Shown in pieces: positions 1-16,718 of a DNA stretch of 20,000 bases. The notes under the pieces are model-generated. The model made no database searches. It was not told where the DNA came from and saw only the letters and a list, made by a program, of their open reading frames with translations. This stretch comes from an uncultured virus (IMG/VR IMGVR_UViG_3300020557_000008) (lineage: Duplodnaviria; Heunggongvirae; Uroviricota; Caudoviricetes): positions 56,635 through 76,634 of the IMG/VR virus record IMGVR_UViG_3300020557_000008. One strand, 5' to 3'. Every line of letters begins with the position of its first letter. The first letter of the stretch is position 1. A program made the translations under genes and the position numbers.

Positions 1-676
1 AAGAAATGTAAACGTATCTCTCCCCACTCAGGCATGGCCTCACTTCATGTGTGCCAAGGTAGTTTGATGGGAATATGAGCAAATCGCCAGATTTTGGTTG
101 ATGTACAGAATTGGCATATACGAATTCAATTTCTCCACCGCTGTATTCATATTTGCCTAGTTCTTTTTGACTCCCAACGGACGAATTTAAATACAGCAAC
201 ACACTCAATACATGCCTTGTAGCAAGTTGTAAATCCGGCTCAAAACCAACTTGATAATTCACTTCGTTGTCGTTGTGAGTCCCCATGCTGCTGCCTGCGC
301 CATAAGCGGCCACATGGCCAGTTTCCGTCCACCATATATTTGGGAGAACATGCGGGTACATTTCTATGTACATCAAAAGATGTTCATAGATGGTTTTTTC
401 ACATTCATTAAAAAATTCAACCAACTCTTTCGGACTATCTTCGTTGATGAAGTCCATGATGTGACTTGCGCTCTTTTTTATGTCTTCAATTTCGTATCTG
501 TGGCCGCTTCTGTTTATCGCATAAGGCTCTTGTCCATCCTCATGAACAATGGTGTAATCGTCTTTAATTGCCTTCTCTTTGAGCGATGAAAAATATGGAA
601 TAACCAGGTCTTGGTCAACTTCTATAGAATTTGGGAAACAGACAATGCCCATGCCGTAATTTATTGAAGTTTCCAT
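1..676 (-). CDS. 2OG-Fe(II) oxygenase, prolyl-4-hydroxylase-like (3' end runs off the window); paralog of 2506..3537
   Basis: Not in the ORF track because it is open at the window edge. Manual translation from the ATG at 676 gives METSINYGMGIVCFPNSIEVDQDLVIPY...LPNIWWTETGHVAAYGAGSSMGTHNDNEVNY...VLSVLLYLNS...YSGGEIEF...GDLLIFPSNYLGTHEVRPCLSGERYVYIS. The HxD...H...R motif is intact. Confidence 0.88.
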   Translation of the reverse strand, partial: METSINYGMGIVCFPNSIEVDQDLVIPYFSSLKEKAIKDDYTIVHEDGQEPYAINRSGHRYEIEDIKKSASHIMDFINEDSPKELVEFFNECEKTIYEHLLMYIEMYPHVLPNIWWTETGHVAAYGAGSSMGTHNDNEVNYQVGFEPDLQLATRHVLSVLLYLNSSVGSQKELGKYEYSGGEIEFVYANSVHQPKSGDLLIFPSNYLGTHEVRPCLSGERYVYIS

Positions 677-682
677 ACACAA

Positions 683-688
683 ATACTA
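683..688 (-). promoter_or_regulatory. Putative -10 element (TAGTAT) for a leaderless transcript
   Basis: TANNNT hexamer 6 nt upstream of the ATG at 676; no SD. Confidence 0.55.
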
Positions 689-715
689 TATGGGCACAAA
701 CCCACAAGCAAGAAT

Positions 716-1462
716 CTAATTCTTTACAAAAACCGTAACCCCGTAAAATTGCGGAAAATGATACGAGGTTCCCGACAAGCCTTTGAGATTTTCATGGAAC
801 TGGTAATACGGGTGCCAAGTGTATGAGGACGAGTACATATTTGATGCATCGTTTGTTGCGGAAATAACAAGCGTCCCGCCCGGAGCCAAAGCGTTGACCA
901 ACGAATCGAGATACTCCATATCAAACGCCACATCCCAGGATTGAACTGCAATCATTTCAAATTGTTCATCGATTCCAGAAATAAGTTCTGACTTGTCGTA
1001 CACCGAGTACCCAAAGGAGGTGTGCTCGTAAACGTTTTTTAGATTTTTCTCATACATGAAAAGGCCGACATCGTTCACAAAATTTATATTTGCATTTTTG
1101 AAACCGTCAAAAACATTTTCTGGCGCCAAAAGAAAACGAGACACCGAACTGCTAAGTCCCCCAACAAACAGTATTGATGTTGGTTGCTTGGTGCGAATTA
1201 AAAAATCCTCTATTGCCATTTGGGGAATTATCGCGCCAACCCAAAATTCATCAGTCATGTCTTTTGAAACTCGCCACTGCATTGACACGGTGGACAAACC
1301 CACAGCGTTATGGCTCAAGTCAACACTTGCCTCGGCCATCGTGTTCCAGCACTTGGTTGACCAGTCTTCCATGTTTGTTTTAAATTCATTGGAGACCAGC
1401 GACGTGCCAGACGAAGAAAGTTGTGTACTTACCATTCCGGCGAAAAGGACTTCTGGTTTCAT
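716..1462 (-). CDS. Class I SAM-dependent methyltransferase-like protein (divergent)
   Basis: 248 aa. EQFEMIAV...LVNALAPGGTLVIS resembles the FD.I...L.PGG.L motifs of Rossmann methyltransferases. Motif I (ILFVGGLSS) is degenerate. The start overlaps the upstream stop (ATGA). Confidence 0.55.
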   Translation of the reverse strand: MKPEVLFAGMVSTQLSSSGTSLVSNEFKTNMEDWSTKCWNTMAEASVDLSHNAVGLSTVSMQWRVSKDMTDEFWVGAIIPQMAIEDFLIRTKQPTSILFVGGLSSSVSRFLLAPENVFDGFKNANINFVNDVGLFMYEKNLKNVYEHTSFGYSVYDKSELISGIDEQFEMIAVQSWDVAFDMEYLDSLVNALAPGGTLVISATNDASNMYSSSYTWHPYYQFHENLKGLSGTSYHFPQFYGVTVFVKN

Positions 1463-1761
1463 AGTTCTTTCCCGTATTTAGATACTTGCAAATAGAAAAA
1501 AGCATTTCTAAGTTTCGGTATAAAGAAACTGTAATTGCGATAAATAAATGGATACGCTGGGTCTCTTCCAAATCCAGAATCTTTTGTGGAAAAAGTTTCT
1601 CTTAGGGCAGTGATAATTTGACCAATTTCGTAACTTTCAAAGTTGGCAGGGTCGAGACCGGTAACAAAAAGAATTTCAGCGATGTCTTGCCACAAATCCA
1701 CAATATGCTTATCTGCGTCAAAAAGTTTTTCTGCTGAATTGGCAGCACACGACCTTGGCAT
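1459..1761 (-). CDS. Hypothetical protein with helix-G(L/V)D motif
   Basis: 100-aa ORF tightly packed in the operon. IAEILFVTGLDPANFE resembles motifs in 1957..2172 and 2176..2424. Confidence 0.7.
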   Translation of the reverse strand: MPRSCAANSAEKLFDADKHIVDLWQDIAEILFVTGLDPANFESYEIGQIITALRETFSTKDSGFGRDPAYPFIYRNYSFFIPKLRNAFFYLQVSKYGKEL

Positions 1762-1765
1762 ATCT

Positions 1766-1954
1766 TTACTGCTCTTTCGCTAAAAATCGGTCAGTGATAT
1801 CGCAATTCATCATTTGACCGTTTTTAAATTCCCACTGCCTTGTGTCTGGGTTCCATTGAGCAACATTGTTCTCATAATCCTTATACCTCAGCATGCGCGG
1901 CTTTTCTTCCTTTGCCTCATCTAGGTGAAGTGGAACAACTGGCTTTGGAATCAT
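1766..1954 (-). CDS. Hypothetical protein (62 aa)
   Basis: Fills the gap between neighbours exactly, with 2-nt and 4-nt spacers. Confidence 0.65.
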   Translation of the reverse strand: MIPKPVVPLHLDEAKEEKPRMLRYKDYENNVAQWNPDTRQWEFKNGQMMNCDITDRFLAKEQ

Positions 1955-1956
1955 GT

Positions 1957-2172
1957 CTAAGAGTCAGAAATCAAAACGTAATTGGCTACTTGACGCTTCA
2001 GCGATTCATGAGCAGCATATTCCGAATGCCCCTCTGGCAAATCGTGGTCGTATGAATCATCAATTGTCGATACGTCGACGCCAAGCGACATGCACAAGAC
2101 GCCGATTGAGTGCTCAAGAAGTTTTTTTGCTTCTTGTTTTGCCTTGGCAAGTTGCGCTTCTGAGAGGTTCAT
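1957..2172 (-). CDS. Hypothetical small helical protein
   Basis: 71 aa, operon-packed, contains IGVLCMSLGVDVSTID. Confidence 0.72.
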   Translation of the reverse strand: MNLSEAQLAKAKQEAKKLLEHSIGVLCMSLGVDVSTIDDSYDHDLPEGHSEYAAHESLKRQVANYVLISDS

Positions 2173-2175
2173 TGA

Positions 2176-2424
2176 TTACCCAAGTTTTTCTAGACGTGAT
2201 TTGAGGGACGCAATCGTTTCAAGTTTTTTCTTTACGTCCAGTTTCCATTGCTGAACATCTGTCTGGTTCTCGGCGAAAGACTCAGAAAAAGTGGCTTCGT
2301 CAAAGGTGTCAACGTCTACCCCGTAGCGAAGCAGTACGCCAAATACTTCTGTTTCCTGCGCTGCAATTGCCTCTTCCACAAGGCGCTTTTGTGTCGCTAC
2401 GTCAATATTTGTGTTGAGTTTCAT
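2176..2424 (-). CDS. Hypothetical small helical/coiled-coil protein
   Basis: 82 aa with a strong SD (AAGGAGA) just upstream; contains VFGVLLRYGVDVDTFD and has a coiled-coil-like C-terminus. Confidence 0.8.
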   Translation of the reverse strand: MKLNTNIDVATQKRLVEEAIAAQETEVFGVLLRYGVDVDTFDEATFSESFAENQTDVQQWKLDVKKKLETIASLKSRLEKLG

Positions 2425-2463
2425 TGGTCTCCTTTTAGCCGCGTCTTGACCGTTGTTGATTCA

Positions 2464-2472
2464 ATAATAGCA
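2464..2472 (-). promoter_or_regulatory. Putative extended -10 promoter (TGcTATTAT) for the 2424-to-716 operon
   Basis: TGnTANNNT in the intergenic region, about 40 nt upstream of an SD-bearing ATG. Confidence 0.5.
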
Positions 2473-2505
2473 CTGCTACTCAAAAAAAGGCAAAGGTGGC
2501 GACGC

Positions 2506-3537
2506 CTATAGCGACTGAACCTTGCCTCGTTTATTGTTGGCATCAAATACGTCTGAGTGCCTGTACGCCTGCTTCAGGCCATCCTCCCCTTCTAGCGACC
2601 TATTTTGGAAAAGGGGATTTGGCTTACCGCTTAACTCCTCCTCGGATTTACCAAACTCCTCAATGCCACAGTACTTTTTATAATCTTCGTATAATGGCTC
2701 TAACCAATGCGGCTCGCACCACGCCTTTACCGTATCAACGTCGAATACTTCCACGAGCACATTGGGGTCACTGCTTCCTTGAGCGTAAAAAGTTAAATAT
2801 CCGTACCGATTTCCTTCGGTGACAGTGCGAACGCCATGAGTCGCAATGAAATTACATGGAAACACAACTATGTCTCCTGCTTTGGCCTGATACTCAACCC
2901 CCAAATAAGGAAAGAATAATTCGCCGCCTGAATACTGGTTCTCGCCAACCGTTCCCTCATCGACGCAATCGTTGAAATAAGCCATGATTGCAATTGTCTG
3001 ACGTGCACCCAATTGTCCCTTCGGTATGTACTTCTTACCTTTTTCGGCTCTAAAATTTGTGTCGTTGTCATTGTGAACTCCCAAGTAGTTGCCCTTGGAG
3101 TATCTCAAAGCATGCCCTCTAGTCCTCCACCAAAGAGTTGGCAAAACCATTGGAAATTCGTGTATGTATTTCAGTACACATTTATAAATTGAATCTTCCA
3201 GATATCGAAAGAAATCAATCATATTTTGTTCGGTGTTCTCGTTGACAACCTGAAGCACTCTCACCGGCACTTCGTTCATCTGCTCTATGGAGAATTTATT
3301 GCCGTCTTCGTTTACGGCATATTTATTTCCTTCTAGGTCGTAGTCAAATTTCCATCTTTGCTCATGCGCATGCTTCCCTTCTTTGTCAATCCATGGAAGT
3401 AATTGTTCTTGATTTACCTTGAAGGCATTTGGAAATGCGATTACACCGCCACCAAGTTTGACCATGTCCATAGCCATGATTTCCTTGACTGCTTGGTCAT
3501 CAATTGTTGGATAATAACCAAAGTATCTATCGTCCAT
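2506..3537 (-). CDS. 2OG-Fe(II) oxygenase, prolyl-4-hydroxylase-like, with N- and C-terminal extensions
   Basis: 343 aa. LRYSKGNYLGVHNDND...IMAYFND...YSGGELFF...GDIVVFP...THGVRTVTEGNRY gives HxD...H...R. Confidence 0.9.
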   Translation of the reverse strand: MDDRYFGYYPTIDDQAVKEIMAMDMVKLGGGVIAFPNAFKVNQEQLLPWIDKEGKHAHEQRWKFDYDLEGNKYAVNEDGNKFSIEQMNEVPVRVLQVVNENTEQNMIDFFRYLEDSIYKCVLKYIHEFPMVLPTLWWRTRGHALRYSKGNYLGVHNDNDTNFRAEKGKKYIPKGQLGARQTIAIMAYFNDCVDEGTVGENQYSGGELFFPYLGVEYQAKAGDIVVFPCNFIATHGVRTVTEGNRYGYLTFYAQGSSDPNVLVEVFDVDTVKAWCEPHWLEPLYEDYKKYCGIEEFGKSEEELSGKPNPLFQNRSLEGEDGLKQAYRHSDVFDANNKRGKVQSL

Positions 3538-3544
3538 AAGGCAA

Positions 3545-3553
3545 ATTATAACA
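3545..3553 (-). promoter_or_regulatory. Consensus extended -10 promoter (TGTTATAAT), leaderless
   Basis: Perfect TGnTATAAT 7 nt upstream of the ATG at 3537. Confidence 0.7.
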
Positions 3554-4261
3554 TTATTGATTTGGAACAGAAATTACAGGAAGTCCTGTGAATGTTGGCC
3601 CAATAGTATTGCCATCAGCGTCAAGACCTGTCTTTATGCCTTTTGTCCATGTCCATGGACGTTCATTATTGTTGTCGCTCTTTAGTTGTCCATATTTCAT
3701 TCTTTGTTCCATAAGTTCTTTGTCATCCCATAAATTTGATACCGAAACGGTCGCATCCGTCATAACCCTGTTGTCGTATATGTTAAAGAAGCAAATTGGC
3801 TCACCGGCCTTGAATGTGACAGGCGCGCCAATGACATTAATTTTCCAGTTCATTTGAACCTCGTCTGGCCACCAAAATGTAGGAACAGTTGCTGAAAGTG
3901 CCTGTGCGTCACTTCTCAAATAGTTTGGCGAACCAGAAAACCAAGTACTGTAATTTTTTTCTGTTCTCACGACCCAGCCCATTGCAAAAGAAACCATTCC
4001 AATTATTGAGCAGTGGACTTGTGTAAAACCGCTTGATGTTTTTTCGCCAGACAATATTTTGGGGACTGAGTTGCCGCCATCCCACTGGACAACAACATCC
4101 TCACTCAGCACCAGTTCCCAACCTAAAACATTCGCGACAGACATTGGCATGCATTGATAAGCATGCTTTTTGTAGGTCTCATCCATCCAGTCTCGCTTGA
4201 TTCGCGACTGTCTAATTTCTGGCGGGTTTTGTGTCGTTTTTACAAACTGAACATTTGTCAC
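3554..4261 (-). CDS. DUF6065-like protein
   Basis: 235 aa. RDWMD...HAYQCMPMSVANVLGWEL and SGSPNY...MNWKI...FKAGEPICF match the DUF6065 pattern as I recall it. The start overlaps the stop of the upstream oxygenase, implying translational coupling. Confidence 0.7.
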   Translation of the reverse strand: MTNVQFVKTTQNPPEIRQSRIKRDWMDETYKKHAYQCMPMSVANVLGWELVLSEDVVVQWDGGNSVPKILSGEKTSSGFTQVHCSIIGMVSFAMGWVVRTEKNYSTWFSGSPNYLRSDAQALSATVPTFWWPDEVQMNWKINVIGAPVTFKAGEPICFFNIYDNRVMTDATVSVSNLWDDKELMEQRMKYGQLKSDNNNERPWTWTKGIKTGLDADGNTIGPTFTGLPVISVPNQ

Positions 4262-4947
4262 TGTGATGTGCTCACCCCACGTGTTGCCGCAACTGGAGAA
4301 TAAGACTGAACCTGCTTGTGGTTCTTGTCGTTGTAGTCAAACATTGTGACGGCAGAATATTTCACTCCGCTCTGAACTGGAAGTGCTGCGTGAGCGAAAA
4401 TGTATGTCGATGGGAAGAAAACAATGTCTCCTGCTTCTGGCTTGAACTTCAAGTCAAAATATGGGAAGAACAGTTCTCCACCTTCATAATCATCGTTTAG
4501 ATACATGATGGACGATATCGTGCATGTGTAAGAAAATCCGTGGTCGGTGTGAGTTTGAAAGTGTTGTTTTGGTCCGTACTTGACGTAATTAATTGCTTCC
4601 ATCCATTCCATTTTTACGTTGTACATTGACTCATAATGACGCAAGCACGGCGTGAGTCTTTCGATTGTGTCTGACCAAATGGCCTTTATTTCCAAGAACT
4701 CGCCTGGCGCCTGGTTCGCAAGTTGTTCGCTAATTTTGCAGTCAAAACAGTCCCTGTAGTCGGGCATCTTTTCCTGGTGTCCGACAAGGGCCTCCATCCA
4801 CATGTACGGGGGTGTTGTGCTCGTCCCTATCGTCTCCTCCAAGCGCTCTATCAAACGCAGTTCTTTGGGGAGCATATTTCTGTAGACCATAATCGCGAAG
4901 CGAGGGTCTCCAAGATATTCGCACGAAACATTTATGGCTGAGTTCAT
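4258..4947 (-). CDS. 2OG-Fe(II) oxygenase, prolyl-4-hydroxylase-like
   Basis: 229 aa. VKYGPKQHFQTHTD...IMYLNDDYEGGELFF...FPSTYIFAHAALPVQSGVKYS gives HxD...H, with Lys at the 2OG-binding position. SD GAAAGGT. Confidence 0.92.
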   Translation of the reverse strand: MNSAINVSCEYLGDPRFAIMVYRNMLPKELRLIERLEETIGTSTTPPYMWMEALVGHQEKMPDYRDCFDCKISEQLANQAPGEFLEIKAIWSDTIERLTPCLRHYESMYNVKMEWMEAINYVKYGPKQHFQTHTDHGFSYTCTISSIMYLNDDYEGGELFFPYFDLKFKPEAGDIVFFPSTYIFAHAALPVQSGVKYSAVTMFDYNDKNHKQVQSYSPVAATRGVSTSQ

Positions 4948-4980
4948 TGTATTGGACCTTTCTTGACCTGGGATGTCGTG

Positions 4981-4990
4981 ATAGTAGAAT
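4981..4990. promoter_or_regulatory. Overlapping divergent -10 elements (TACTAT on minus, TAGAAT on plus)
   Basis: Plus-strand TAGAAT (4985-4990) lies 6 nt before the ATG at 4997. Minus-strand TACTAT (4986-4981) lies upstream of the gene starting at 4947. The two share the central TA. Confidence 0.6.
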
Positions 4991-4996
4991 GTTCTT

Positions 4997-5860
4997 ATGA
5001 GTATAGCGCCTATTTCGGGGGCAATCGAAACCCTGCCATTGTCTATTTACGACATAAAAATCAAGTCAGCCGACGGGAAAAACAGTGACGTTTTGGGTGA
5101 CGCAAGGGGTAAGGTAACCCTGCTTTTCAATGTCGCCGCAGGCTGCGGGAATATTCCTCAACACGGCGTAATTGAGCAACTTCATCAAATGTATAAGGGA
5201 AACCCAGATTTTAAAATTTTGGCTGTGGTTGTTGACGACTTTGTGTGTCACGGATACGAACAGTTCCAGGGCGGACTCGCTTCTTATGCTGAAAAAAATG
5301 CGCTGAGCATGACCCCAGGTCAAATAGCACAGGATTATGCCAAGACCCATTTCGGCTCAACATACGAATTCACTGAGTTGACAAACGGTAGATACGACAA
5401 GCACTCGTACAGCGAAGACTATGTTCCAAATGCTCAAAAGATTCAGGACATTCATGAATTGTGGTTTTATTTGACTGGTTGTCATTCGGCAGATTTTCAA
5501 GAAAACGGAACCCCCTATACTGACGAATTTATTCCTTGGGCAAAAGTAAAGGCGTCAAAGCCAGATGACAAAAGGGGAATGTCCAATTTGACTGGTAATT
5601 TTACAAAGTTTTTGATTGATAGGACAGGAACGCAATATTTGCGCTATCACAATGGATTTCTTCTCGGTGAACGAACACCGCATGGCGAGCCATTCCCTTG
5701 GTGGCAGGGTGAGGGTTTGGAAAAACTCAAACAAGAATTGGGAGAAAAAGAATTTTTTGAGTGGACAAACGCCCCGTATCCAACAAAGTTGCAACAAAAG
5801 GGAATTAACGAATCCCTGAGAATAATCAAAAACGATATCGATTACATGCTCGGGATGTAA
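4997..5860 (+). CDS. Glutathione-peroxidase-like (thioredoxin-fold) protein, atypical active site
   Basis: 287 aa. SIYDIKIKSADG...RGKVTLLFNVAAGCGNIPQH and NFTKFLIDRTG correspond to the GPx signatures NVASxCG and WNFxKFLIDxxG. Confidence 0.8.
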   Translation: MSIAPISGAIETLPLSIYDIKIKSADGKNSDVLGDARGKVTLLFNVAAGCGNIPQHGVIEQLHQMYKGNPDFKILAVVVDDFVCHGYEQFQGGLASYAEKNALSMTPGQIAQDYAKTHFGSTYEFTELTNGRYDKHSYSEDYVPNAQKIQDIHELWFYLTGCHSADFQENGTPYTDEFIPWAKVKASKPDDKRGMSNLTGNFTKFLIDRTGTQYLRYHNGFLLGERTPHGEPFPWWQGEGLEKLKQELGEKEFFEWTNAPYPTKLQQKGINESLRIIKNDIDYMLGM

Positions 5861-6880
5861 TCACTTAATCAGAAACAACTTATTCCTATTTGGGATGGGT
5901 AGCAAAGAGTCTTTATTGTCCTCAATATTGACTTTTTCAAATATGCCAAACAGCGCGTTTCTCGTTAGTGATTTTTCGTTGTTTGGTATCGCATCGCAAT
6001 ACAATGACTTCCCTTGCCATGCGATTGCGTCGCCTTCCATGGGCATGTGTTGATATATTTTCCCAACATCTGCATTTGCCAACCTGTGACAGTAGTGAAT
6101 ATATTCGTTGTATTTTTCATTGGAGGTTAGGTCCCCAATGATGTTTTGGTCAAGGTCCAGCGCATGCGAACCTGCCGCTATTTGTAATACTCCAGAAATT
6201 GGATGATGGTCTTCTATGGCAACCATTTCTATAACTGTGCCCGGCGAAGTGATTGGCTCATTGCACCATGGCGCCTCCATCTTCCAATGGTGCTGCGACG
6301 ACCATGTAAAAGCATGAACAAATCTAAGTCCATATGCCGTGTTCATTGAATCTGCCAATGACTCCATGAAGTCGTTGCACAGAATAGAGACAATTGACTC
6401 CGATACAAGATATTCTTTTGTTGAAAACAAATAAGACTTTTTTTTGGTGCCCGTCTTTAAAAGCATTTCTTTTGCATATTTTGATTTGTAGTCGCTAATC
6501 GCATCTTTTGGTGCTCCGCCTAAACAAACGGAATAACCCTTATCTACAAAATCACCATGATTTTCGCTAGAGGTGTACTGCTCAAGTAATCGATAGTCAA
6601 TATATGATTTACGTCCGCCATTTGTTTTATGCCCATATCCGTTGATATGAATGTTTTTCCCAAAAGTATTTAAAGCATGAAGGAAGCCAACGGACTCAAC
6701 AAAACCCACATCCAAACCAAGTTCGTCTATTTTTCCTTCTGCTATTTGTGCCCATGCATTGGCTACGGCTTGATATCCAGTTGTTTCCCCAACCCAGAAG
6801 TGTCTAGCAATAATTTCGGTAACTGTGTAGTCGTGCCACGCAGTTGATGTATCAAAATCTTTTGGTTTATTTACACTCAC
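5861..6880 (-). CDS. Phytanoyl-CoA-dioxygenase (PhyH)-like fold protein, probably lacking Fe ligands
   Basis: 339 aa, GTG start. VAIEDHHPISGVLQIAAGSH and EGDAIAW...TRNAL match the PhyH patterns (ALED...G.L...PGSH; GD.L.W), but no HxD is present at the expected position. Confidence 0.6.
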   Translation of the reverse strand: MSVNKPKDFDTSTAWHDYTVTEIIARHFWVGETTGYQAVANAWAQIAEGKIDELGLDVGFVESVGFLHALNTFGKNIHINGYGHKTNGGRKSYIDYRLLEQYTSSENHGDFVDKGYSVCLGGAPKDAISDYKSKYAKEMLLKTGTKKKSYLFSTKEYLVSESIVSILCNDFMESLADSMNTAYGLRFVHAFTWSSQHHWKMEAPWCNEPITSPGTVIEMVAIEDHHPISGVLQIAAGSHALDLDQNIIGDLTSNEKYNEYIHYCHRLANADVGKIYQHMPMEGDAIAWQGKSLYCDAIPNNEKSLTRNALFGIFEKVNIEDNKDSLLPIPNRNKLFLIK

Positions 6881-6886
6881 AAATTC

Positions 6887-6896
6887 AGACTATCAT
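6887..6896. promoter_or_regulatory. Overlapping divergent -10 elements (TAGTCT on minus, TATCAT on plus), both leaderless
   Basis: 22-nt intergenic gap. Each hexamer lies exactly 6 nt from its start codon (GTG 6880, ATG 6903), and they share the TA at 6891-6892. Confidence 0.68.
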
Positions 6897-6902
6897 AACT
6901 AT

Positions 6903-7466
6903 ATGGGAATAAACCGTGTCGTCGGCCTTGTTTCTCTTGGAGTAATGGGGTCATCGCTTGCGTCATCATTGCTTTCGTCTGGGCATTCGGTTATATGGGC
7001 CTCCCATGGTCGTTCACAAAAAACAATTGACAGGGCTCGCTCTGTGGGCGCCATTGATGTTGGGACAATCAAAGAACTTTCAGACCGTTCTGATGTAATT
7101 ATGTCTGTTGGGTTTGGCAATAGCGGGCCAGAAACCGCAGAACGTTTGATACATGTGGGCTTTGACAAAATTCTTGTTGACTTCAATTCATTGTGGGGAG
7201 AGTCATCAGAGCATTCTTTTTATGAGACTGTGGCGCAAGGTAAGTATGATTACGTTGACGGAGCAATCCATGGATACCCGCTCAACAGTTCTTTTGATAA
7301 AGATGGGTTGACTCGCTTGATGCTCCTGCATGGCGAGCATGCTCAATTTATTGGGTCTCTGTTTACTGATGATATTTGGACAATCATCTACTGTAAAGAA
7401 AAGGCAAAAAAGGAAAATAGGATTATGAGCCAACGACCGTATAGAACGATGGAGTCGTATACCTAA
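6903..7466 (+). CDS. NAD(P)-binding Rossmann protein of the 6-phosphogluconate/3-hydroxyisobutyrate dehydrogenase family, N-terminal domain only
   Basis: 187 aa. VGLVSLGVMGSSLA...GHSVIWAS.GRS..T..RA...SDVIMSV...VDFNS...YVDGAIHG. Overlaps the convergent gene by 44 bp. Confidence 0.72.
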   Translation: MGINRVVGLVSLGVMGSSLASSLLSSGHSVIWASHGRSQKTIDRARSVGAIDVGTIKELSDRSDVIMSVGFGNSGPETAERLIHVGFDKILVDFNSLWGESSEHSFYETVAQGKYDYVDGAIHGYPLNSSFDKDGLTRLMLLHGEHAQFIGSLFTDDIWTIIYCKEKAKKENRIMSQRPYRTMESYT

Positions 7467-8061
7467 ATCCTTTTGTAATCATTGTTACCCCATGCAGATA
7501 ATTGACATCACCGGGGTGCATGACGGCCAAGCCTGGCTTTGGCCTTACCGTGAGGTCGTGTTGTGGATAAAACAAATCTCCGCCTTCAAAATCGTCGTTG
7601 TAATAAAACAGAGAGTTGAGGTCATAGTCAACAAATGCATTTGGTCTTCCGTCATTCAATTGTTTGTCCGCGTGAGGTTTTTGCTCAATTCCAGGACGCC
7701 ATTTCATTATTACGGGAGGGCGTTTGCTGACTTTCACTTTGTAAAAGTCTTCAATCGTTTTCTGCATTTTGTCAATATATTTGTCAACAAGTATCCATAC
7801 CTGTTTGTTGAGCCGTTCTAATATCTCGCTACTGCACTGTCTGTCGTTCCAATAATCTGCGTTATATAAACAAGTTCCATCTTCGGCGTACACGCTTTCA
7901 GCAGAATTGTTCCACTGATTAATGGTTGGGCAAAACTCCTGAATAAGTTTCAAATCTTCCAATTCAATAAAATTGTCAATGACAACAATATTTGATGAAC
8001 TGTTTCCGAAATGTCCCGGCTTGATTTTCCATGGGCTTTCTGCTGTAACGTCCGTGCTCAT
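7423..8061 (-). CDS. 2OG-Fe(II) oxygenase, prolyl-4-hydroxylase-like
   Basis: 212 aa. IVVIDNFI...KWRPGIEQKPHAD...YYNDDFEGGDLFY...YLHGVTMITKGFRYT gives HxD...H...R. Confidence 0.92.
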   Translation of the reverse strand: MSTDVTAESPWKIKPGHFGNSSSNIVVIDNFIELEDLKLIQEFCPTINQWNNSAESVYAEDGTCLYNADYWNDRQCSSEILERLNKQVWILVDKYIDKMQKTIEDFYKVKVSKRPPVIMKWRPGIEQKPHADKQLNDGRPNAFVDYDLNSLFYYNDDFEGGDLFYPQHDLTVRPKPGLAVMHPGDVNYLHGVTMITKGFRYTTPSFYTVVGS

Positions 8062-8067
8062 GTCATA

Positions 8068-8073
8068 ACCCTA
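8068..8073 (-). promoter_or_regulatory. Putative -10 element (TAGGGT), leaderless
   Basis: TANNNT 6 nt upstream of the ATG at 8061. Confidence 0.5.
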
Positions 8074-8107
8074 ACAGCCACTGCATTGGAGTTCTGGATT
8101 TAACTAA

Positions 8108-8599
8108 TCAGCACGGGCCCAATTTTGGATTAAAGCAGGGTGGGAAATATGGCGGGAAGAAAGGTGGGAAGAATGGCGGGAAGAAAGGTGGGAAGAACGG
8201 CGGGAAGTATGGGGGGAAAAAGGGCGGGAAGAACGGTGGGAAAAACGGAGGGAAAAAAGGCGGAAAATACGGAGGAGTTACCGATGGTGATGCCGCTGAA
8301 ACATCTGATGGAACGCCATAATTTGTATTTGCGACAACCGTAAATGTGTAAGAAGTTCCAGAAGTTAAGCCAGATACGGTTATCGGTGAAGATGAGCCAG
8401 TCGCAGTCAAACCGCCAGGGCTTGAGGTCGCCGTATATGTAACTGTTCCCTTGCCAATGTAAGAAGACGGTGTGAAAGCAACGCTTACCTGCTGTGCGTT
8501 GTTCGGGTTTGTGTTATTGACAACGGGAACGACCGTCCCTGTTGGGGACGACGGTGTCGTTGGCTTTTTGCCGCCACTGTCCTTTGGTGCCCTTGCCAT
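8108..8599 (-). CDS. Fibronectin type III domain protein with a C-terminal (PPFF)n repeat tail; likely virion/fibre-associated
   Basis: 163 aa. VSVAFTP...YTATSSPGG...ITVSGLTSGTSYTFTVVANTNYG..S..S is an FN3 signature, followed by 12 PPxF units. Starts 3 nt after the stop of the large fibre gene. Confidence 0.85.
   Translation of the reverse strand: MARAPKDSGGKKPTTPSSPTGTVVPVVNNTNPNNAQQVSVAFTPSSYIGKGTVTYTATSSPGGLTATGSSSPITVSGLTSGTSYTFTVVANTNYGVPSDVSAASPSVTPPYFPPFFPPFFPPFFPPFFPPYFPPFFPPFFPPFFPPFFPPYFPPCFNPKLGPC
8132..8275 (-). repeat. Coding 12-nt tandem repeat x12, encoding (PPYF-(PPFF)4)2-PPYF-PPCF
   Basis: Codons read directly: CCT CCG TAT TTT / CCG CCT TTT TTC / CCT CCG TTT TTC / CCA CCG TTC TTC ... 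CCA CCC TGC TTT. Synonymous positions vary while the peptide is conserved. Confidence 0.97.
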
Positions 8600-8602
8600 A
8601 AA

Positions 8603-11600
8603 TTATGCCGAAATATCTCCTACGAGAACCCACGTATTTTCTGCTCGCTTGATAAGCGTAGCATAGGACCACTGTGCTCGCATCTTCAAGCCTGGTGCTG
8701 CGTTAATTGTTACCCCACCAGTTGCAACAATTGTTGTCTGGCCAGCACCTGTCTGCAAAATGTTGATTTGTGAGCCCACAGGGAAGGCAACGGATGAGTT
8801 CAGTGGAACGGTCAAGTTGTTTGCAGAGGCAACGTTCATTTCTACAATCTTGTTCTTATCCGCAAGGACAAGTGTATAACTGGCTGTTTGAGCGTTTGTT
8901 GAGATGTCTGCCAATTTGCCAAGTTCAATTGCCGCAGTCGCGCTTACATCAGCATTAACAATCACGCCGGAAGAAATCGCCGTAACGCCAGATGAGTCAA
9001 TTGTTATATCGCCGGTTTCCGTTACCCATGTCGGTACACCAGATGCGTTGGCAACAATGATTTGTCCAGCAGTTCCGCTAGATACTGCAATTGAGGCACT
9101 AGAACCCTCTCCTGGCGTGTGCGTAACCGTAATTAGGTTGCCAGCAGCAACGTTCGACATATAGTTACCAGTTGTATCTGTCCCTAGGTCAATTGCGTCA
9201 TTGACCCATGCAGTTCCATTCCATTTCAGGAATTGGCCAGATGTAGCGCTCGTAATTGTTACGTCAGCGATGTCATCGAGGGAATTGATGGTTGTGCCGC
9301 CTGCTGCGTCATTTACCCATGCAGTTCCATTCCATTTTAGAACTTGACCGGCAGATGCAGATGTAATTGATACGTCACCGATGTCATCGAGTGAAGCAAC
9401 CGTTTGCCCATCAACATAAAATGTTGTAGCAATGTCGTAATACGTAGAGCCATCTTCAGTGATTTCCCACTTATCGCTTGTTTCATTCCAGCGGACGGCA
9501 ACGTTTGCCGACGTTCCACGTTCAACTTCAATACCAGCATTCTGTGATGGCGCGCTTGTCTCATTGCTATTGAGAACAATGATGTTGTCAGCGAGATTGA
9601 TTGTCTCCGTATTGACAGTCGTTGTCGTTCCATTGATTGTTAAATCTCCGCCAACAGTGACGTTTCCAGTTGTGGTGATTTGAGCAAATTGAACCGAAGC
9701 GGAAGTGCCAACAGCCTGACCGATTGCAACTGTGGGGCTTGAACCCTCTCCTGGGGTGTGGCTAACGGTTACACCAGTTCCTGCGGTTACATCAGAAACA
9801 TAATTTCCTGTTGTGTCTGTCCCTAGGGCAACTGAGTTAGCCGCGATTGTTGCGTTTATGGTTACATTAGAGGAACCATTAAATGAAGCAGAACCACTCA
9901 GGTCACCGCCCAGAGAGATTGTGCGAGATGTGGCAAGGGCCGTTGCGGTAGACGCATTGCCGATAAGTGGAGCCGTGACTGCCGCAAATGTCACCGATGA
10001 TGAAGTGCCAACAGCCTGACCAATGGCAATCGTCGGGCTTGAGCCTTCGCCAGGAGTATGTGTGACGGTGACACCAGTGCCTGCGGTTACATCAGAAACA
10101 TAGTTTCCTGTTGTGTCGGTGCCAAGAGCAACGCTGTTCGGCTCAACTGCCGCAGTGATTGTTACATCCGATGTTCCGTTAAACGACACCGAACCGCTGA
10201 GGTCTCCACCAAGAGAGATTGTTCGAGCATTCTGAAGAGCGGTCGCCGTTCCAGAATTTCCTGTCACATCGCCTGTTATGTTGCCTGTTACCGGCGCAGA
10301 AACATGTGCAAATGTGACAGACGATGAAGTCCCAACATCTTGGCCAATTGCAATTGTTGCGTTTGAGCCTTCTGCCGGAGTATGTGTAATTGCAACACCC
10401 GTACCAGCAGTGAGGTCAGACATGTAGTTTCCGGTCGTATCTGTTCCGAGCGCAACTGAGTTCGCTGCAATAGTCGCAGTGATTGAAGCATTTGTAGAGC
10501 CATCAAAAGAAACCGAACCAGTTACATCGCCAGAAAGGCTTATCGTCCTTGCGTTTTGCAACGTTGTGGCTGTTGATGCATTACCAACAAGATTTGCGCT
10601 TACAGTATTGAATGTAACCGATGCGCTTGTCGCCACATCTTGACCGATAGACAGTGTGTTTCCCGTCTTCGTAATTCCTGTACCGGCAACAATGTTTGCA
10701 GCACCAGTAAACTGCGTAAAGGTTATTGCGTCAGTACCGATGATGTGAGCACCACCTGTTCCTGTTCCCTCTGAATTGATAATAAAACCTTGGTTGATAT
10801 GCGTTGCGCCGTTTGCAACATAAACAGCATCTCCGCGTACAACTTCATCAAGGTTTCCATCATGGTCAGATGAGCGAGTAAGAATCCATGCTGCAGAAAC
10901 CGAGCCCTGATTTGTTACATCATAAATTCCGTTATGAACACTATTTGCCTGATTCTGCACCAAGACTCTGTCGCCGGTTGTCGCATTTACTCCGTCAATA
11001 ATGAGTCGCGCACTTGCGCTAGCGGTAAGGGTCGCACCAACACCACTTGTTCCATTGTCGTAAGTTGGTGAGTTCGGCAGAACCGCCGCTGTCGCGAGTT
11101 CCACGGAATCGTGCCAGTTGATTCCCGCTGCTATTGAGTCGGCGTACGACTTTGTAACTGCGTGGGTTGTTTCAGTCGGCTGACCAGTGAGTGTAAGGAC
11201 AGCGAATGTTGGCGATGCTGATGTTGCAACACTTTGAGGAATGGATATTGTCGCCGTTGAGCCTTCGCTTGGAGTGTGGCTGATTGTGATTCCTGTTCCA
11301 GCGGTCACATCAACCATGTAGTTGCCGACGGTGTCGGTGCCGAGGTTAATTTGGTCGTTAATCCAGACAGATGATGCGCTGTTCCACATCAAGACATCTT
11401 TGTCAACCTTGCCGTTGGTCTTGACATCATGCAGTTCATTCAGTTCATATCCGTTCTGAACTGCAACATAGATGATTCCGTTGTTTGTTGCACGAACGAC
11501 AACGCCGATGAACACTGTGTTCAGCGGAGCAGAAGGCTTAGTGGTGGTGACACCACCATTTGTTCCAAGCCACAGGATGTCGCCGACGCTGTAGGCAGAA

Positions 11601-14041
11601 AGGTTAATTCCATCGACATATCCGCGTGTGATGACTGGACCGTTTTGGTTCGACGCAACTGCCGTACCCATAACGCCGACAGTCTTGGAAGACGTTGTCT
11701 CCAGCGCATTATCGGCGCGCTTGACCGAAGCATGGTCGCCGTTTCCACCAAAGAGGTATACAACTGTGCCTGATGCAAGTGTCGTTGCTTCCGCATTGCG
11801 GACATACGAGACAACCGGTGTGTATGTCGGAACCCAGCCAGAACCGTCGTAGGCAAGGGCCTGGAATTCTTCTGGTGTCCCAACAACCACATCGTTGAGG
11901 TCGTTCAATGATGCATTCAGGGCAACCGATGCGCTAGAGCCCTCACCGGGTGTATGGGTAACCGTGATAGCAGAGCCAGCAACAATGTCGTTGACGTAAT
12001 TGCCGGTTGTATCGGTACCGAGGGCTACAGAGTTTGGCTGAACCGTTGCGGTAATCGTGACATCAGCAGTTCCGTTGAAGGATGCAGAGCCAGACAAATC
12101 GCCCGAGAGAGAAATTGCGCGCGAAGTCTGCAGCGAGGTTGCTGTGTCAGCATTTCCAGTCAGATTTCCGGTGACATTACCCGTTACGTTCCCCGTTACT
12201 GGCGCAGAGACGTGCGCGAATGTCACAGATGACGATGTTCCGACATCCTGTCCGATTGCTACCGTTGGAGAAGAACCTTCGCCAGGAGTGTGCGTTACAG
12301 TAACGCCCGTTCCAGCGGTCAAATCATTGACATAGTTGCCAGTCGTGTCTGTTCCGAGTTCAATAGCCCCAAGTGCAGCGATGTCACCGTATGTGGTGCC
12401 GTCGTTCGTGAACTCCCATTGGTCGTTTGTTTCGTTCCAGCGAATTAGAACATTTGCTGAAGTTCCGCGCTCAACTTCAATTCCAGCATTTTCTGTTGGT
12501 GAGCCAGTGACATTGCTATTCAGAACAACAATGTTGTCCTCAATCGCCAGTGTCTCTGTGTTTAGGGTGGTTGTGGTTCCGTTTACTGTCAGGTTTCCGC
12601 CAACAGTGATGTCGCCAGTTGTGTCAAGTTTTGCGAAAGTAACCGATGCGCTAGTTGCTACAGACTGACCGATTGCGATTGTTGGGCTTGAGCCCTCTGC
12701 CGGCGTGTGTGTAACGGTTACACCAGTGCCAGCGACAACATCTGAAACATAGTTTCCTACGGTGTCAGTCCCGAGGTTGATTGTGTCGTTTACCCATACG
12801 GTTGAGGCGCTGTTATAGCGCAGGAATTGACCGTCTGTTGGAGATGTCAAAAGAACATCATGCAAATCTTGAATGTGCTCACCTACAGATGGCCTTACAA
12901 GCAAAACGCCAGTTGATGCATTCCTGACAACTAGAGTTGCAACAAGAACCGAATGACGCGGAGCAACGTTTGTCAGTTTGCCAGCGACTGTTGGGTGAAC
13001 ATAGAGAAGGTCTCCAACAGCCCATGTTTCATCGCCAACGCTGATTGCTGTTGAAGAATTTCCTCTTGTGTCAAGTCCTCTTACAAAACCAAAAGTTTGA
13101 ACAAATCCACTGCCGCCATTGGTTATTGATTCAGTTGCAAGTCCAATAAAACTTTCTTCACGGATAGTTCCATCTGCAGTATATGGAAATACTTCAACTT
13201 TTCCGTCTTCCTCTACCCCGGAAGCGTAAAGCGCAGTGCCTTTTTGAATTTGCGAACCAGTTGTGTTGCGAACACGGAATACCGATTCCTCTCCAAGATG
13301 TATGTGTTTATCTGCTGTCAAGCCAAGATTGAGTGTTCCCTCAACAGAATCCCATGTAAGCATTCCAGCAGCAGGTGCCACACTCGCTGTTGTATCAAAC
13401 TGAACGGAATCGATATCTGATAGCGAGTCAACCGTCAAGCCACCAGAGAAAGTGATTGATGTTCCATCACTCGTGATTTCTGCCCCACCAAGATTGATGC
13501 TTGTGCCAGACAAATAGATATCCCTGAATCGCGCCGAAGCAGAGCCAAGGTCGTATGCTTCTGTTGTGCTTGGAATTACATGACCGGCAATATTTGTTTG
13601 ACCATTTACCGTAAGTTGACCAAACGAAACTGATGCGGAAGTGCCCACATCTTGCCCGATTGCAATAGAGGCAGTTGAACCTTCGCCTGGGGTGTGAGTG
13701 ACGGTGACACCAGTGCCGCCAGCCACATCGACCATGTAGTTGCCGACGGTGTCGGTTGAAAGGTTTACGGCGTCGTTAATCCAGACGGAAGCGGAACTGT
13801 CGTAACGCAAAAAATCCCCACCGCTGACGCTGGTGATGGTTACATCACTAAGGTCATTCAGTGAACTAAGGGAAATCGGGATAACCGTATACGAAAGCGA
13901 ATTCCATGCTGTAGTGCCGTCGCCAATTTTGACTTTTTTCGTGTCGGTTTCAAAACCGATTTCACCCGCGTAAAGAACAGGGTTATTGCTTGTCCAAGAT
14001 GAGGCTGTACCGCGCTTGACCTGAATCCTTGCTCCAGCCAT
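8603..14041 (-). CDS. Large mosaic phage fibre protein (1812 aa) with an Mtd_N/hyaluronidase-type N-terminus and many internal repeats
   Basis: The N-terminus RIQVKRGTASSWTSNNPVLYAGEIGFETDTKKVKIGDGTTAWNSLSY is typical of the Mtd N-terminal anchor. The protein is G/T/S/A/V-rich with several repeated modules and ends in a TASYTLVLAD...WVLVGDISA domain. Confidence 0.88.
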   Translation of the reverse strand: MAGARIQVKRGTASSWTSNNPVLYAGEIGFETDTKKVKIGDGTTAWNSLSYTVIPISLSSLNDLSDVTITSVSGGDFLRYDSSASVWINDAVNLSTDTVGNYMVDVAGGTGVTVTHTPGEGSTASIAIGQDVGTSASVSFGQLTVNGQTNIAGHVIPSTTEAYDLGSASARFRDIYLSGTSINLGGAEITSDGTSITFSGGLTVDSLSDIDSVQFDTTASVAPAAGMLTWDSVEGTLNLGLTADKHIHLGEESVFRVRNTTGSQIQKGTALYASGVEEDGKVEVFPYTADGTIREESFIGLATESITNGGSGFVQTFGFVRGLDTRGNSSTAISVGDETWAVGDLLYVHPTVAGKLTNVAPRHSVLVATLVVRNASTGVLLVRPSVGEHIQDLHDVLLTSPTDGQFLRYNSASTVWVNDTINLGTDTVGNYVSDVVAGTGVTVTHTPAEGSSPTIAIGQSVATSASVTFAKLDTTGDITVGGNLTVNGTTTTLNTETLAIEDNIVVLNSNVTGSPTENAGIEVERGTSANVLIRWNETNDQWEFTNDGTTYGDIAALGAIELGTDTTGNYVNDLTAGTGVTVTHTPGEGSSPTVAIGQDVGTSSSVTFAHVSAPVTGNVTGNVTGNLTGNADTATSLQTSRAISLSGDLSGSASFNGTADVTITATVQPNSVALGTDTTGNYVNDIVAGSAITVTHTPGEGSSASVALNASLNDLNDVVVGTPEEFQALAYDGSGWVPTYTPVVSYVRNAEATTLASGTVVYLFGGNGDHASVKRADNALETTSSKTVGVMGTAVASNQNGPVITRGYVDGINLSAYSVGDILWLGTNGGVTTTKPSAPLNTVFIGVVVRATNNGIIYVAVQNGYELNELHDVKTNGKVDKDVLMWNSASSVWINDQINLGTDTVGNYMVDVTAGTGITISHTPSEGSTATISIPQSVATSASPTFAVLTLTGQPTETTHAVTKSYADSIAAGINWHDSVELATAAVLPNSPTYDNGTSGVGATLTASASARLIIDGVNATTGDRVLVQNQANSVHNGIYDVTNQGSVSAAWILTRSSDHDGNLDEVVRGDAVYVANGATHINQGFIINSEGTGTGGAHIIGTDAITFTQFTGAANIVAGTGITKTGNTLSIGQDVATSASVTFNTVSANLVGNASTATTLQNARTISLSGDVTGSVSFDGSTNASITATIAANSVALGTDTTGNYMSDLTAGTGVAITHTPAEGSNATIAIGQDVGTSSSVTFAHVSAPVTGNITGDVTGNSGTATALQNARTISLGGDLSGSVSFNGTSDVTITAAVEPNSVALGTDTTGNYVSDVTAGTGVTVTHTPGEGSSPTIAIGQAVGTSSSVTFAAVTAPLIGNASTATALATSRTISLGGDLSGSASFNGSSNVTINATIAANSVALGTDTTGNYVSDVTAGTGVTVSHTPGEGSSPTVAIGQAVGTSASVQFAQITTTGNVTVGGDLTINGTTTTVNTETINLADNIIVLNSNETSAPSQNAGIEVERGTSANVAVRWNETSDKWEITEDGSTYYDIATTFYVDGQTVASLDDIGDVSITSASAGQVLKWNGTAWVNDAAGGTTINSLDDIADVTITSATSGQFLKWNGTAWVNDAIDLGTDTTGNYMSNVAAGNLITVTHTPGEGSSASIAVSSGTAGQIIVANASGVPTWVTETGDITIDSSGVTAISSGVIVNADVSATAAIELGKLADISTNAQTASYTLVLADKNKIVEMNVASANNLTVPLNSSVAFPVGSQINILQTGAGQTTIVATGGVTINAAPGLKMRAQWSYATLIKRAENTWVLVGDISA
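9701..10120. repeat. Recent ~300-bp internal tandem duplication in the fibre gene
   Basis: 9771-9817 and 10071-10117 differ at 2 of 47 nt. gaagtgccaacagcctgacc occurs at 9702 and 10002. Both offsets are 300 nt (100 aa). Confidence 0.85.
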
Positions 14042-14496
14042 TACACCGCACCTCCGTCAAAGCCAACGATTACATAATTTGTAACTTCCGCTTCATATAT
14101 TTCTGGAGAAATAATACCACCATCTACGTCTCCAGATAACAAACCTGCTCCGCCGCTTACTTCAGTCCATGTTGAGTTAGAGCGGAAAAAGAACTTGTTA
14201 TTTGTTGTATCTACTGCGATGGCTCCGTTAGGAAGTTCCGAAGTAGGCGTCCCATTTGTCGTCAGTGTCACGAGCCCAAGGGCGGCCTGAAATACGTCAT
14301 CCGTATAGAGGGTGTTTGCACTTGTGCGGTAGAGGTTGGTATCTCCAGCCGCTGAACCAGAAGACCACGTAAGGCGACCGCCAGCATCAATGCGAATTCT
14401 TGCATGTGCATCAAGATTTACGCGCGTAGAGAATGATTCGTCGCTTGGACTAGAAAACTCAATGCCGCGTAGGGGCGTTCCAACAAATCGTGTCAT
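14041..14496 (-). CDS. Small fibre/tail-associated structural protein
   Basis: 151 aa. RIRIDAGGRLTW...DTNLYRTSANTLYTDD and C-terminal DGG motifs resemble phage minor tail proteins. TAATG overlap with the large fibre gene. Confidence 0.65.
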   Translation of the reverse strand: MTRFVGTPLRGIEFSSPSDESFSTRVNLDAHARIRIDAGGRLTWSSGSAAGDTNLYRTSANTLYTDDVFQAALGLVTLTTNGTPTSELPNGAIAVDTTNNKFFFRSNSTWTEVSGGAGLLSGDVDGGIISPEIYEAEVTNYVIVGFDGGAV

Positions 14497-14556
14497 ATGA
14501 ATACAGCCTCGACTGCCTTCTGGTTGTGTGTGCCCCGCAAGGCACTATGGGTATTA

Positions 14557-16017: not shown

Positions 16018-16040
16018 GTGGGTCTACCTCCAGAGTTCTC

Positions 16041-16718
16041 CTATGAAAGATACGCCTTTCCAGCGAAAGAGTGTGAGAAGGTCACCGTTAGGGCATTTTC
16101 CGACACATACGTGACCTCCCCCACAACTTTGCTGAGGGCGCTATCAACAATGCTGACATTTGGGTAAAACTTCATATTGTGCGTGATATTCCATGTATTC
16201 GATGCAGTTGGTTGGTCGTGTACATACCTAGAACGGGTTCTTAATTCCTCTATTGCGTCCTGAACATTGACAGAGGTGATTTCTGATGTCGGAACAAAAA
16301 TGATGTTCTCTGCTGAACCAGCATCCGAAAAAGCGTCATTGACATACTCAACAGTCGCATAGTTCTCCTGCACGACTGGAGCAATATTTGGGGCAAGGTC
16401 CGCCAAGTCAACAGCACCAAGAATCGCGTCCTTGTCAATCTCGATAAAGTATTTATTTAGTGCGCATCCAGAAATTCGCTCTGTCACTTCATAGGTAACG
16501 CCAAGGGGTTCTGTTGCGGTGTCGTTGGTCGCGTACAAGACAACCGAAAAAGAGCCAGATGCACTGAGTGTCGCGGTAACCAAAGATGGAGCAACTGTGA
16601 GATTGAATTGAGGTTGACGCATTGGTGCAGTAAGGAGGAACGTGACGCGACCGGACTGCGGGTTGCCAGTTCCTGTCTCAACATACGTTCCCGTAACGGT
16701 GATTGGTGTAAATGCCAT
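16041..16718 (-). CDS. Minor tail/structural protein
   Basis: 225 aa. The N-terminal beta-rich domain (VTGTYV...GRVTF...GSFSVVLYATND) resembles actinophage minor tail proteins. It also has an NVQDAIEEL motif and a C-terminal WNITHN...V..VD domain. Confidence 0.68.
   Translation of the reverse strand: MAFTPITVTGTYVETGTGNPQSGRVTFLLTAPMRQPQFNLTVAPSLVTATLSASGSFSVVLYATNDTATEPLGVTYEVTERISGCALNKYFIEIDKDAILGAVDLADLAPNIAPVVQENYATVEYVNDAFSDAGSAENIIFVPTSEITSVNVQDAIEELRTRSRYVHDQPTASNTWNITHNMKFYPNVSIVDSALSKVVGEVTYVSENALTVTFSHSFAGKAYLS

Follow-up and report, generated by a model that had tools for sequence, protein, structure and literature searches.

A conserved phage locus combining an FN3-(PPxF)n protein, P4H-like oxygenases and DUF6065, with the proline-phenylalanine tract as a possible hydroxylation substrate

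The window studied here is a stretch of 20,000 nucleotides (nt) from an uncultured phage of lake type, the final 20 kb of a linear IMG/VR viral record of 76.6 kb (IMGVR_UViG_3300020557_000008; CheckV completeness 57%). Our subject is a group of genes lying in it behind a fibre gene: a small FN3 protein with a tract of PPxF units, several oxygenases resembling prolyl 4-hydroxylases (P4H) and dependent in type on 2-oxoglutarate (2OG) and Fe(II), and a DUF6065 protein. The large genes of the window are all on the minus strand, in an order that starts with head-tail adaptor, Neck1-type and tail-terminator genes and continues through genes for proteins of 225, 486 and 151 amino acids (aa) to that of the 1812-aa fibre. 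The features on which the analysis turns are the following; loci compared below are numbered L and records G.

8603..14041, minus strand: fibre protein FIB, 1812 aa, with an Mtd_N N-terminus (Pfam E 1.3e-15), repeated modules and matches to PHROG tail-fibre/minor-tail families
8108..8599, minus strand: FN3-(PPxF)12 protein, 163 aa, with a conserved N-terminal KDSGGK-P motif, the FN3 domain at about 8300-8551, the tract at 8132-8275 and, at the end of the tail, two Cys
7423..8061, minus strand: O_a, a P4H-like protein of 212 aa whose gene follows the FN3 gene after 46 nt; PHROG 61 E 6e-18, HxD...H present, PF13640 under the cut-off at 20.1 bits
4258..4947, minus strand: O_b, 229 aa, the most P4H-like paralog; PF13640 50.3 bits
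3554..4261, minus strand: DUF6065 protein, 235 aa; PF19541 148.3 bits against a cut-off of 26.6, E 3.3e-43; overlaps O_b by 4 nt
2506..3537, minus strand: O_c, 343 aa, a long form with a C-terminal extension; PF13640 34.5 bits, PHROG 61 E 1.4e-17
1..682, minus strand: O_d, 305 aa in full; PF13640 42.1 bits; crosses the left end of the window (full gene L010:18399-19316)

The tract occupies residues 109-156 of the FN3 protein and reads, in translation, PPYF, four times PPFF, PPYF, four times PPFF, PPYF and PPCF, which makes 12 PPxF units with 24 prolines. Tandem Repeats Finder reports the corresponding array at 8139-8272, with a period of 12, 9.4 copies and 79% matches. At the DNA level, the units vary nearly only at third codon positions (CCT/CCG/CCA/CCC, TTT/TTC), and replacements at the amino-acid level are limited to three of F by Y and one of F by C. 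Since the differences are almost all synonymous, PPxF is the selected coding frame. The protein falls slightly below the Pfam fn3 cut-off (24.0 bits against 25). Its AlphaFold model contains a beta-sandwich at residues 17-92 (pLDDT 83-92) and a non-globular, unstructured tail that bears the tract (pLDDT 57-70); its closest PDB structure is the chitinase A1 FN3 domain (1k85, TM by target 0.80), and titin Fn3 domains come next. Translation, model and fold match thus bear out the first-pass annotation, made from the letters alone, which had described a small FN3 protein with 24 prolines in 12 PPxF units. The FIB stop codon stands 3 nt ahead of the start of this gene, and in the majority of related loci, too, the PPFF gene comes directly after a FIB homologue. 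FIB itself has a proline content of 2.4% and carries nine TP[GAS]EG motifs (X-Pro-Gly type); the motif was considered as an oxygenase substrate and rejected, because it does not track oxygenase number.

Three of the four oxygenases in the window exceed the gathering cut-off of PF13640 (2OG-FeII_Oxy_3), which is 27 bits. An alignment of 8 paralogs from the record shows the HxD...H triad without variation, and H133, D135, H186 and K196 are invariant in a profile of 42 O_b orthologues. K196 lies 10 residues after the distal H186, and the paralogs have R or K in the matching alignment column; in this enzyme class, a basic residue about 10 positions past the distal His binds the 2OG C5 carboxylate. 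In a profile search of the PDB, the best solved relatives of O_b were Bacillus anthracis P4H (E 3.4e-8), PiuC-type hydroxylases, LH3, the P4H of the chlorovirus PBCV-1 and P3H1. Because these nearest solved relatives are prolyl and lysyl hydroxylases, the label 'P4H-like' is justified at the level of sequence relationship. The earlier count of four P4H-like enzymes with intact HxD...H therefore holds for the window, as PF13640, PHROG 61 and the triad alignment agree, and is too low as a total: the whole record encodes nine PF13640-type oxygenases, four in the window and five more outside, six of the nine within about 10 kb. Beyond O_d, outside the window, lie two more oxygenases and two glycosyltransferase-like genes.

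The DUF6065 gene had been described as coupled to one of the oxygenases, and both the Pfam score and the 4-nt overlap with O_b confirm it. Across related loci we counted 80 adjacent oxygenase-DUF6065 pairs, 55 of which overlap by 4 nt or 1 nt. The partner is nearly always the same: 65 of the 66 distinct oxygenases adjoining DUF6065 are of the O_b type, in the position directly before it. The model of the DUF6065 protein (pLDDT 87.6) is a dUTPase-like barrel. Foldseek returned dUTPases as its top matches throughout (E 4e-5, TM by target up to 0.77), and the 13 chains with Z of at least 8 in VIA-align were 12 dUTPases and UL82 of human cytomegalovirus, a herpesvirus protein derived from a dUTPase (best Z 10.7). 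Sequence identity to dUTPases is only 7-14%; the dUTPase-like fold is assigned from the model. The residues invariant in the family alignment cluster in an N-terminal R-W-M..T..HAY-C-P motif that includes C37. Complex prediction of O_b with DUF6065 returned no answer (score 0.00 in both runs, made without controls) and speaks neither for nor against a complex. DUF6065 also occurs in 25 of 401 Pseudomonadota genomes, as a stand-alone chromosomal gene. We read 19 such loci (the Pfam scan left out L247): a YbaK/ProX-type aminoacyl-tRNA editing gene (tRNA_edit) is a neighbour in 6 of the 19 (L236, L237, L242, L243, L244, L246), often with a thioredoxin-TPR gene nearby, and in L253 DUF6065 has an L,D-transpeptidase gene on one side and the gene of a collagen-repeat protein on the other.

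The first-pass annotation had proposed that FN3-(PPFF)n proteins should be sought in viral metagenomes and their co-occurrence and synteny with 2OG-FeII_Oxy_3 and DUF6065 genes examined. We did so from both ends of the locus, and the association was found. A (PPFF)3 DNA pattern matched more than 124 stretches of viral contigs, from which 76 distinct records were obtained, 50 of them searched for PF13640, and 79 loci compared. PF13640 was present in 44 of the 50 records, mostly in 6-11 copies, including records of just 13-19 kb. Of the 79 loci, 64 contain an oxygenase homologue, 50 a DUF6065 gene no more than 10 kb away and 56 a homologue of the fibre; at least two oxygenases lie downstream of 59 of the 69 distinct tract genes with 8 kb or more of downstream sequence. 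The recurrent order is fibre, tract gene, one or two oxygenases, DUF6065 and further oxygenases. In the reverse direction, a DUF6065-seeded search yielded at least 604 pattern-matching stretches, 573 of which a profile confirmed as relatives, and the best 80 of these 573 (55-100% identical to the query) were used. A same-strand tract of at least four units was found within 6 kb upstream in 35 of the 40 loci, among these best 80, that have at least 6 kb of upstream sequence. The five without it are L153, L154, L158, L160 and L168. Three of them were read (L153, L158, L168). In each, the fibre gene is succeeded by one for an FN3 protein, whose tract comprises three PPYF units or opens with a short PPYF stretch that gives way to a Cys-rich module and units of PSFG type.

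The pairing of tract and oxygenase battery is thus beyond chance. The order fibre, FN3-(PPxF)n protein, oxygenases and DUF6065 is kept in dozens of viral contigs and in two deeply diverged clades, and it holds also in the clade whose DUF6065 is 22-29% identical to that of the window. Tract length and oxygenase count show a weak trend (Spearman 0.29, n=69), the rows of which are not independent. In L073/L074, L032, L043 and L138, there are two fibre-tract pairs several kb apart, and the oxygenase battery follows one of them only.

In the proteins of the PPFF family, the C-terminal tract, of the form (PPxF)n or (P/PP-FF)n, is combined with FN3 domains, between one and four in number, or with a domain that by eye resembles PASTA. 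Their tails finish with '...FK', a Cys-rich knot, a domain starting with Cys or a sequence with an 'SD.R.K' start; by eye, we take the last two to be a Hint-type domain and the start of an S74-type chaperone, respectively. In L017, L020, L043, L054, L066, L075, L079 and L080, the tract is followed by a Cys-start domain that has HN or S at its end and resembles a self-cleaving Hint/intein-like module, and in L046 and L077 by an 'SD.R.K' start resembling the S74 intramolecular chaperone of fibres. Either type of tail would make the tract the mature C-terminus.

Two further collections were searched. In a collection of cultured phages, megablast of positions 1-8700 gave no match, and tblastn searches with DUF6065 and with the FN3-PPFF protein likewise had none at E 1e-3. 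The (PPFF)3 pattern matched 22 stretches of a genome collection, 21 of them distinct (L232 overlaps L224). Real tract proteins are encoded in six of the 22, corresponding to five phage-like contigs binned into metagenome-assembled genomes (MAGs; L215, L220, L224/L232, L227, L228), and the other matches are in non-coding frames or are chance low-complexity sequence. Because all real tracts are in phage-like contigs, no independent bacterial PPFF tract exists among the 22 matches. The MAGs concerned are labelled Verrucomicrobiales, Gammaproteobacteria, Acidibacter and Cyclobacteriaceae. Placement of the phage-like contigs in them is probably mis-binning, and the labels are therefore not to be taken as hosts.

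The rest of the record places the locus within a virion-gene region. Beyond the window, about 20 kb downstream of the FN3 gene and on the same strand, it encodes a 1638-aa tape measure, Dit and a Tal-like protein, and because of these the phage is a siphovirus. It also encodes WhiB, ParB-type proteins, a replication initiator, a SNF2 helicase, a holin and an endolysin; because of WhiB, the host is probably an actinobacterium. The FN3 gene had been taken for the last structural gene, which is wrong: as tape measure, Dit and Tal follow it, the enzyme island interrupts the structural genes and does not mark their end. The virion module is split (record G000, 38-56 kb), with neck and fibre genes apart from the tape measure, Dit and Tal genes, and the roughly 20 kb in between hold oxygenases, the two glycosyltransferase-like genes, an 897-aa protein, the SNF2 helicase, the holin and the endolysin. 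In a promoter and terminator scan that was not informative, promoter-like sites were at chance level and no terminator was seen between the FN3 gene and O_a.

The remaining genes of the island are listed here.

6903..7466, plus strand: NAD(P)-binding Rossmann protein, 187 aa; NAD_binding_2 30.8 bits against a cut-off of 21
5861..6880, minus strand: 339-aa protein, possibly a PhyH-type dioxygenase; lead from a protein-atlas feature score of 0.92 to PhyH clusters, no Pfam match
4997..5860, plus strand: 287-aa protein with a GPx-like N-terminal part; GSHPx 26.2 bits against a cut-off of 27, E 6e-6; PHROG 5295
1459..2424, minus strand: four small open reading frames (ORFs) of 82, 71, 62 and 100 aa; no Pfam or PHROG matches
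716..1462, minus strand: class I methyltransferase-like protein (O-methyltransferase family 3-like), 248 aa; lead from an atlas structure match of TM 0.55-0.60 to Methyltransf_3 clusters

Three of the assignments proposed for these genes stand in part. The PhyH-like gene keeps its atlas lead and lacks a Pfam match. The GPx-like gene is supported by the GSHPx E value and by PHROG 5295, with a score just under the Pfam cut-off. The methyltransferase-like gene has a structural match of TM about 0.6, which rests on an atlas model of pLDDT 0.52, and no Pfam match. Of the 79 PPFF loci, 5 have a homologue of the NAD-binding protein, 14 of the GPx-like protein, 11 of the methyltransferase-like protein and 3 of the 100-aa ORF. 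The 3' end of the NAD-binding ORF overlaps that of O_a by 44 nt. Homologues of the NAD-binding and GPx-like genes elsewhere are often co-oriented with the oxygenases, for example between an oxygenase and DUF6065, and as both are on the opposite strand here, this suggests local inversions. Two of the small ORFs, at 2176-2424 (82 aa) and 1957-2172 (71 aa), both on the minus strand, come after O_c, and a look-alike of the 71-aa ORF immediately follows DUF6065 in L153 and L158. No homologue of either glycosyltransferase (GT1 or GT2) was found in the 79 PPFF-seeded loci; glycosyltransferases were for this reason rejected as a conserved part of the module, and glycosylation with them.

From these observations we propose the following explanation. 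The 163-aa protein would be a fibre-associated virion protein, probably docked by its conserved N-terminal peptide, in which the single FN3 domain would act as a spacer and the C-terminal (PPxF)12 as an extended, very hydrophobic stalk. The P4H-like oxygenases would be made with the late genes, and at least some of them would use Fe(II), 2-oxoglutarate and O2 to hydroxylate prolines of the tract and possibly other positions, in analogy with collagen, extensin and the proline-rich repeats of PBCV-1. The expected result is a stiffer and more soluble stalk; (PPFF)n is half phenylalanine, and hydroxylation is plausibly required for its solubility and for a polyproline II (PPII) conformation. O_b and the translationally coupled DUF6065 protein would form the conserved core, and the glycosyltransferases, the methyltransferase-like protein and the oxygenases other than O_b would be lineage-specific additions to it. 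The tract is put forward as substrate because the nearest solved relatives of O_b are peptide hydroxylases, because the synteny is conserved and because the oxygenases drop in number in one relative with a degenerate tract. In this relative (G051, 94% complete), the FN3 orthologue is 61% identical to that of the window and has a Cys-rich module and PSFG units in place of the tract, and there is a single PF13640 gene, the O_b orthologue beside DUF6065, against nine in the record of the window. That at least one enzyme of the battery hydroxylates the tract is, in our judgement, a tentative conclusion that falls a little short of probable. The earlier idea of a locus uniting a substrate with its tailoring enzymes is in this way retained for the P4H-type enzymes and the conserved gene order, with the tract as the proposed substrate; the likeness to clusters of ribosomally synthesized and post-translationally modified peptides (RiPPs) drops out of it. 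A fuller version, in which several specialised paralogs hydroxylate different positions of the unit (both prolines, perhaps the beta-carbons of Phe or Tyr) and some of the hydroxyls are then O-methylated or glycosylated, giving a collagen- or extensin-like phage stalk whose C-terminus is freed in relatives by Hint- or S74-type self-cleavage, seems to us improbable.

A number of points weigh against hydroxylation of the tract. The contrast offered by the G051 group is a single evolutionary event and not a statistic, and common descent of all the cases from a single phage lineage is possible, for which reason the counts given above are not independent events. The fibre gene is tied to the battery as tightly as the tract gene, and adjacency alone therefore cannot tell the one from the other. 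Six to eleven paralogs exceed the obvious need of a four-residue repeat. The island (window 1-8000) has a G+C content of 0.41-0.46 against 0.47-0.52 in the structural genes (8001-20000), which may reflect a separate history. It also contains the two opposite-strand genes at 6903..7466 and 4997..5860 and so does not make up a single operon together with the FN3 gene. The dUTPase-like fold modelled for DUF6065 hints at a nucleotide or another small molecule as its ligand, and none of the 19 bacterial DUF6065 loci read has a phage-type oxygenase within 1.5 kb. The first-pass annotation had named, as a result that would speak against its proposal, an oxygenase cassette equally frequent in phages without Pro-rich repeats, and part of this is seen. 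The Synechococcus cyanophage Syn9, which has a tandem dioxygenase array with a distant DUF6065-like protein, has no (PP[FY][FY])2 anywhere in its 177-kb genome, and an analogous array thus exists without a Pro-Phe tract; conversely, records with short internal PPFF linkers in large proteins, all of them incomplete, have 0-1 PF13640 genes (G007, G010, G016, G017, G042).

Several of these points would be explained if the battery were a cassette for tailoring small molecules or altering host metabolism, an auxiliary metabolic island placed behind the fibre genes merely because this is where the lineage keeps its accessory genes. Besides the lack of PPFF in Syn9, the modelled fold of DUF6065 and the lower G+C content, such a role would suit the NAD-binding, GPx-like, PhyH-like and O-methyltransferase-like genes of the island, and the synthesis of a secondary metabolite has been proposed for the Syn9 array (PMC2938197). 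However, the Pfam scans of the record contain no scaffold-building enzyme (NRPS, PKS, ATP-grasp or terpene synthase), the oxygenases are closest to peptide hydroxylases, the relative with a degenerate tract has one oxygenase only, and the order of tract, oxygenases and DUF6065 survives deep divergence. We consider this explanation unlikely.

Slightly less likely again is that the oxygenases hydroxylate other proteins, be it the large fibre, other virion proteins, or translation factors and ribosomal proteins of the host. Some bacterial P4H-like enzymes act on EF-Tu and on ribosomal proteins, a FIB homologue adjoins the battery as constantly as the tract gene does, and the TP[GAS]EG motifs of the FIB in the window would offer nine sites. 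Yet the fibres of L147 and L012, which have 6-7 oxygenases, contain no such motif, and fibre proline content is 2-5%; moreover, in L023, L032 and L047, contigs with more than one fibre gene, the battery follows the fibre-tract pair and not the tract-less fibre genes. Hydroxylation of the tract by the adjoining enzymes remains the explanation we prefer.

Text searches of papers for 'PPFFPPFF' and for 'DUF6065' found nothing. The locus touches two known kinds of system, the virus-encoded P4H that is accompanied by the virus's own Pro-rich repeats and the dioxygenase arrays of phages, and the latter, described in silico in 2010, have been without a known substrate since. The module lends itself to a cheap and concrete test, since the enzymes to be tried are few and a single small protein or a synthetic (PPFF)n peptide could be offered to them. 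If the proposal is true, tailed phages would join chloroviruses and mimiviruses in hydroxylating structural repeats that they themselves encode, (PPxF)n would count as a fibrous protein motif of a new kind, with an assembly that needs oxygen, iron and 2-oxoglutarate, and virion maturation would be linked to host physiology in lakes. Should the tract prove not to be the substrate, the conserved pairing of O_b with DUF6065 would even so point to an enzyme system of its own.

Among known systems, the array of Syn9 is close in layout. Besides 10 dioxygenases in tandem and two halogenases, it includes a protein of dUTPase fold that has a conserved Cys, according to Iyer, Abhiman, de Souza and Aravind 2010 (PMC2938197), who suggest a secondary metabolite as the product of the array. 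As in gp41-gp54 of Syn9, which lie downstream of putative fibre genes (gp32-34), many 2OG dioxygenases stand here in tandem behind a fibre gene: six PF13640-type genes within about 10 kb, with a DUF6065 protein of predicted dUTPase-like fold and invariant C37. Syn9 gp43 matches the DUF6065 profile weakly (hhalign E 7.8e-4, probability 25%, 156 columns). This protein (L233, DQ149023, 16055-16843) has matching R..W, C, PNY and AGTP positions and no DUF6065 call in Pfam; gp43 is probably the conserved-Cys dUTPase-fold protein of the 2010 description. The two arrays differ in that the Syn9 enzymes are mostly 2OG-FeII_Oxy_5, JmjC and DUF6445 proteins together with two Trp halogenases, and in that Gly-rich proteins stand ahead of the Syn9 array (gp36 is 35% Gly). 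Pfam scans of the window and of the rest of the record contain neither a Trp halogenase nor a JmjC/MINA-type member, both of which are found in Syn9.

The likeness to a RiPP cluster suggested in the first-pass annotation was not upheld: the candidate substrate is a folded FN3 protein of the fibre module, and Pfam scans of the island and the record, with detection at the Pfam level only, contain no leader-type gene, peptidase, ABC exporter or RRE. Collagen and extensin maturation differ as well, since the locus has no collagen Gly-X-Y repeat and no PDI-type subunit. B. anthracis P4H (3itq, 5hv0), the best solved relative of O_b (E 3e-8), has the HxD...H...K residues in common with it and acts on proline-rich PPII-type peptides; identity is low and the alignment is limited to the double-stranded beta-helix (DSBH) core. 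A further P4H, Cr-P4H, has a peptide tunnel (PMC9676403). PBCV-1 (P4H structure 5c5t, among the PDB sequence matches of O_b with E 0.0015-0.0076) offers a parallel, since a small P4H-like oxygenase of monomer type and Pro-rich repeat proteins are there encoded by the same virus. The PBCV-1 enzyme acts on these viral repeats. It is a single P4H in a giant algal virus, whereas a tailed phage here has 6-11 paralogs and a DUF6065 partner, and the repeat is PPxF, half aromatic, at the C-terminus of an FN3 protein of the fibre module.

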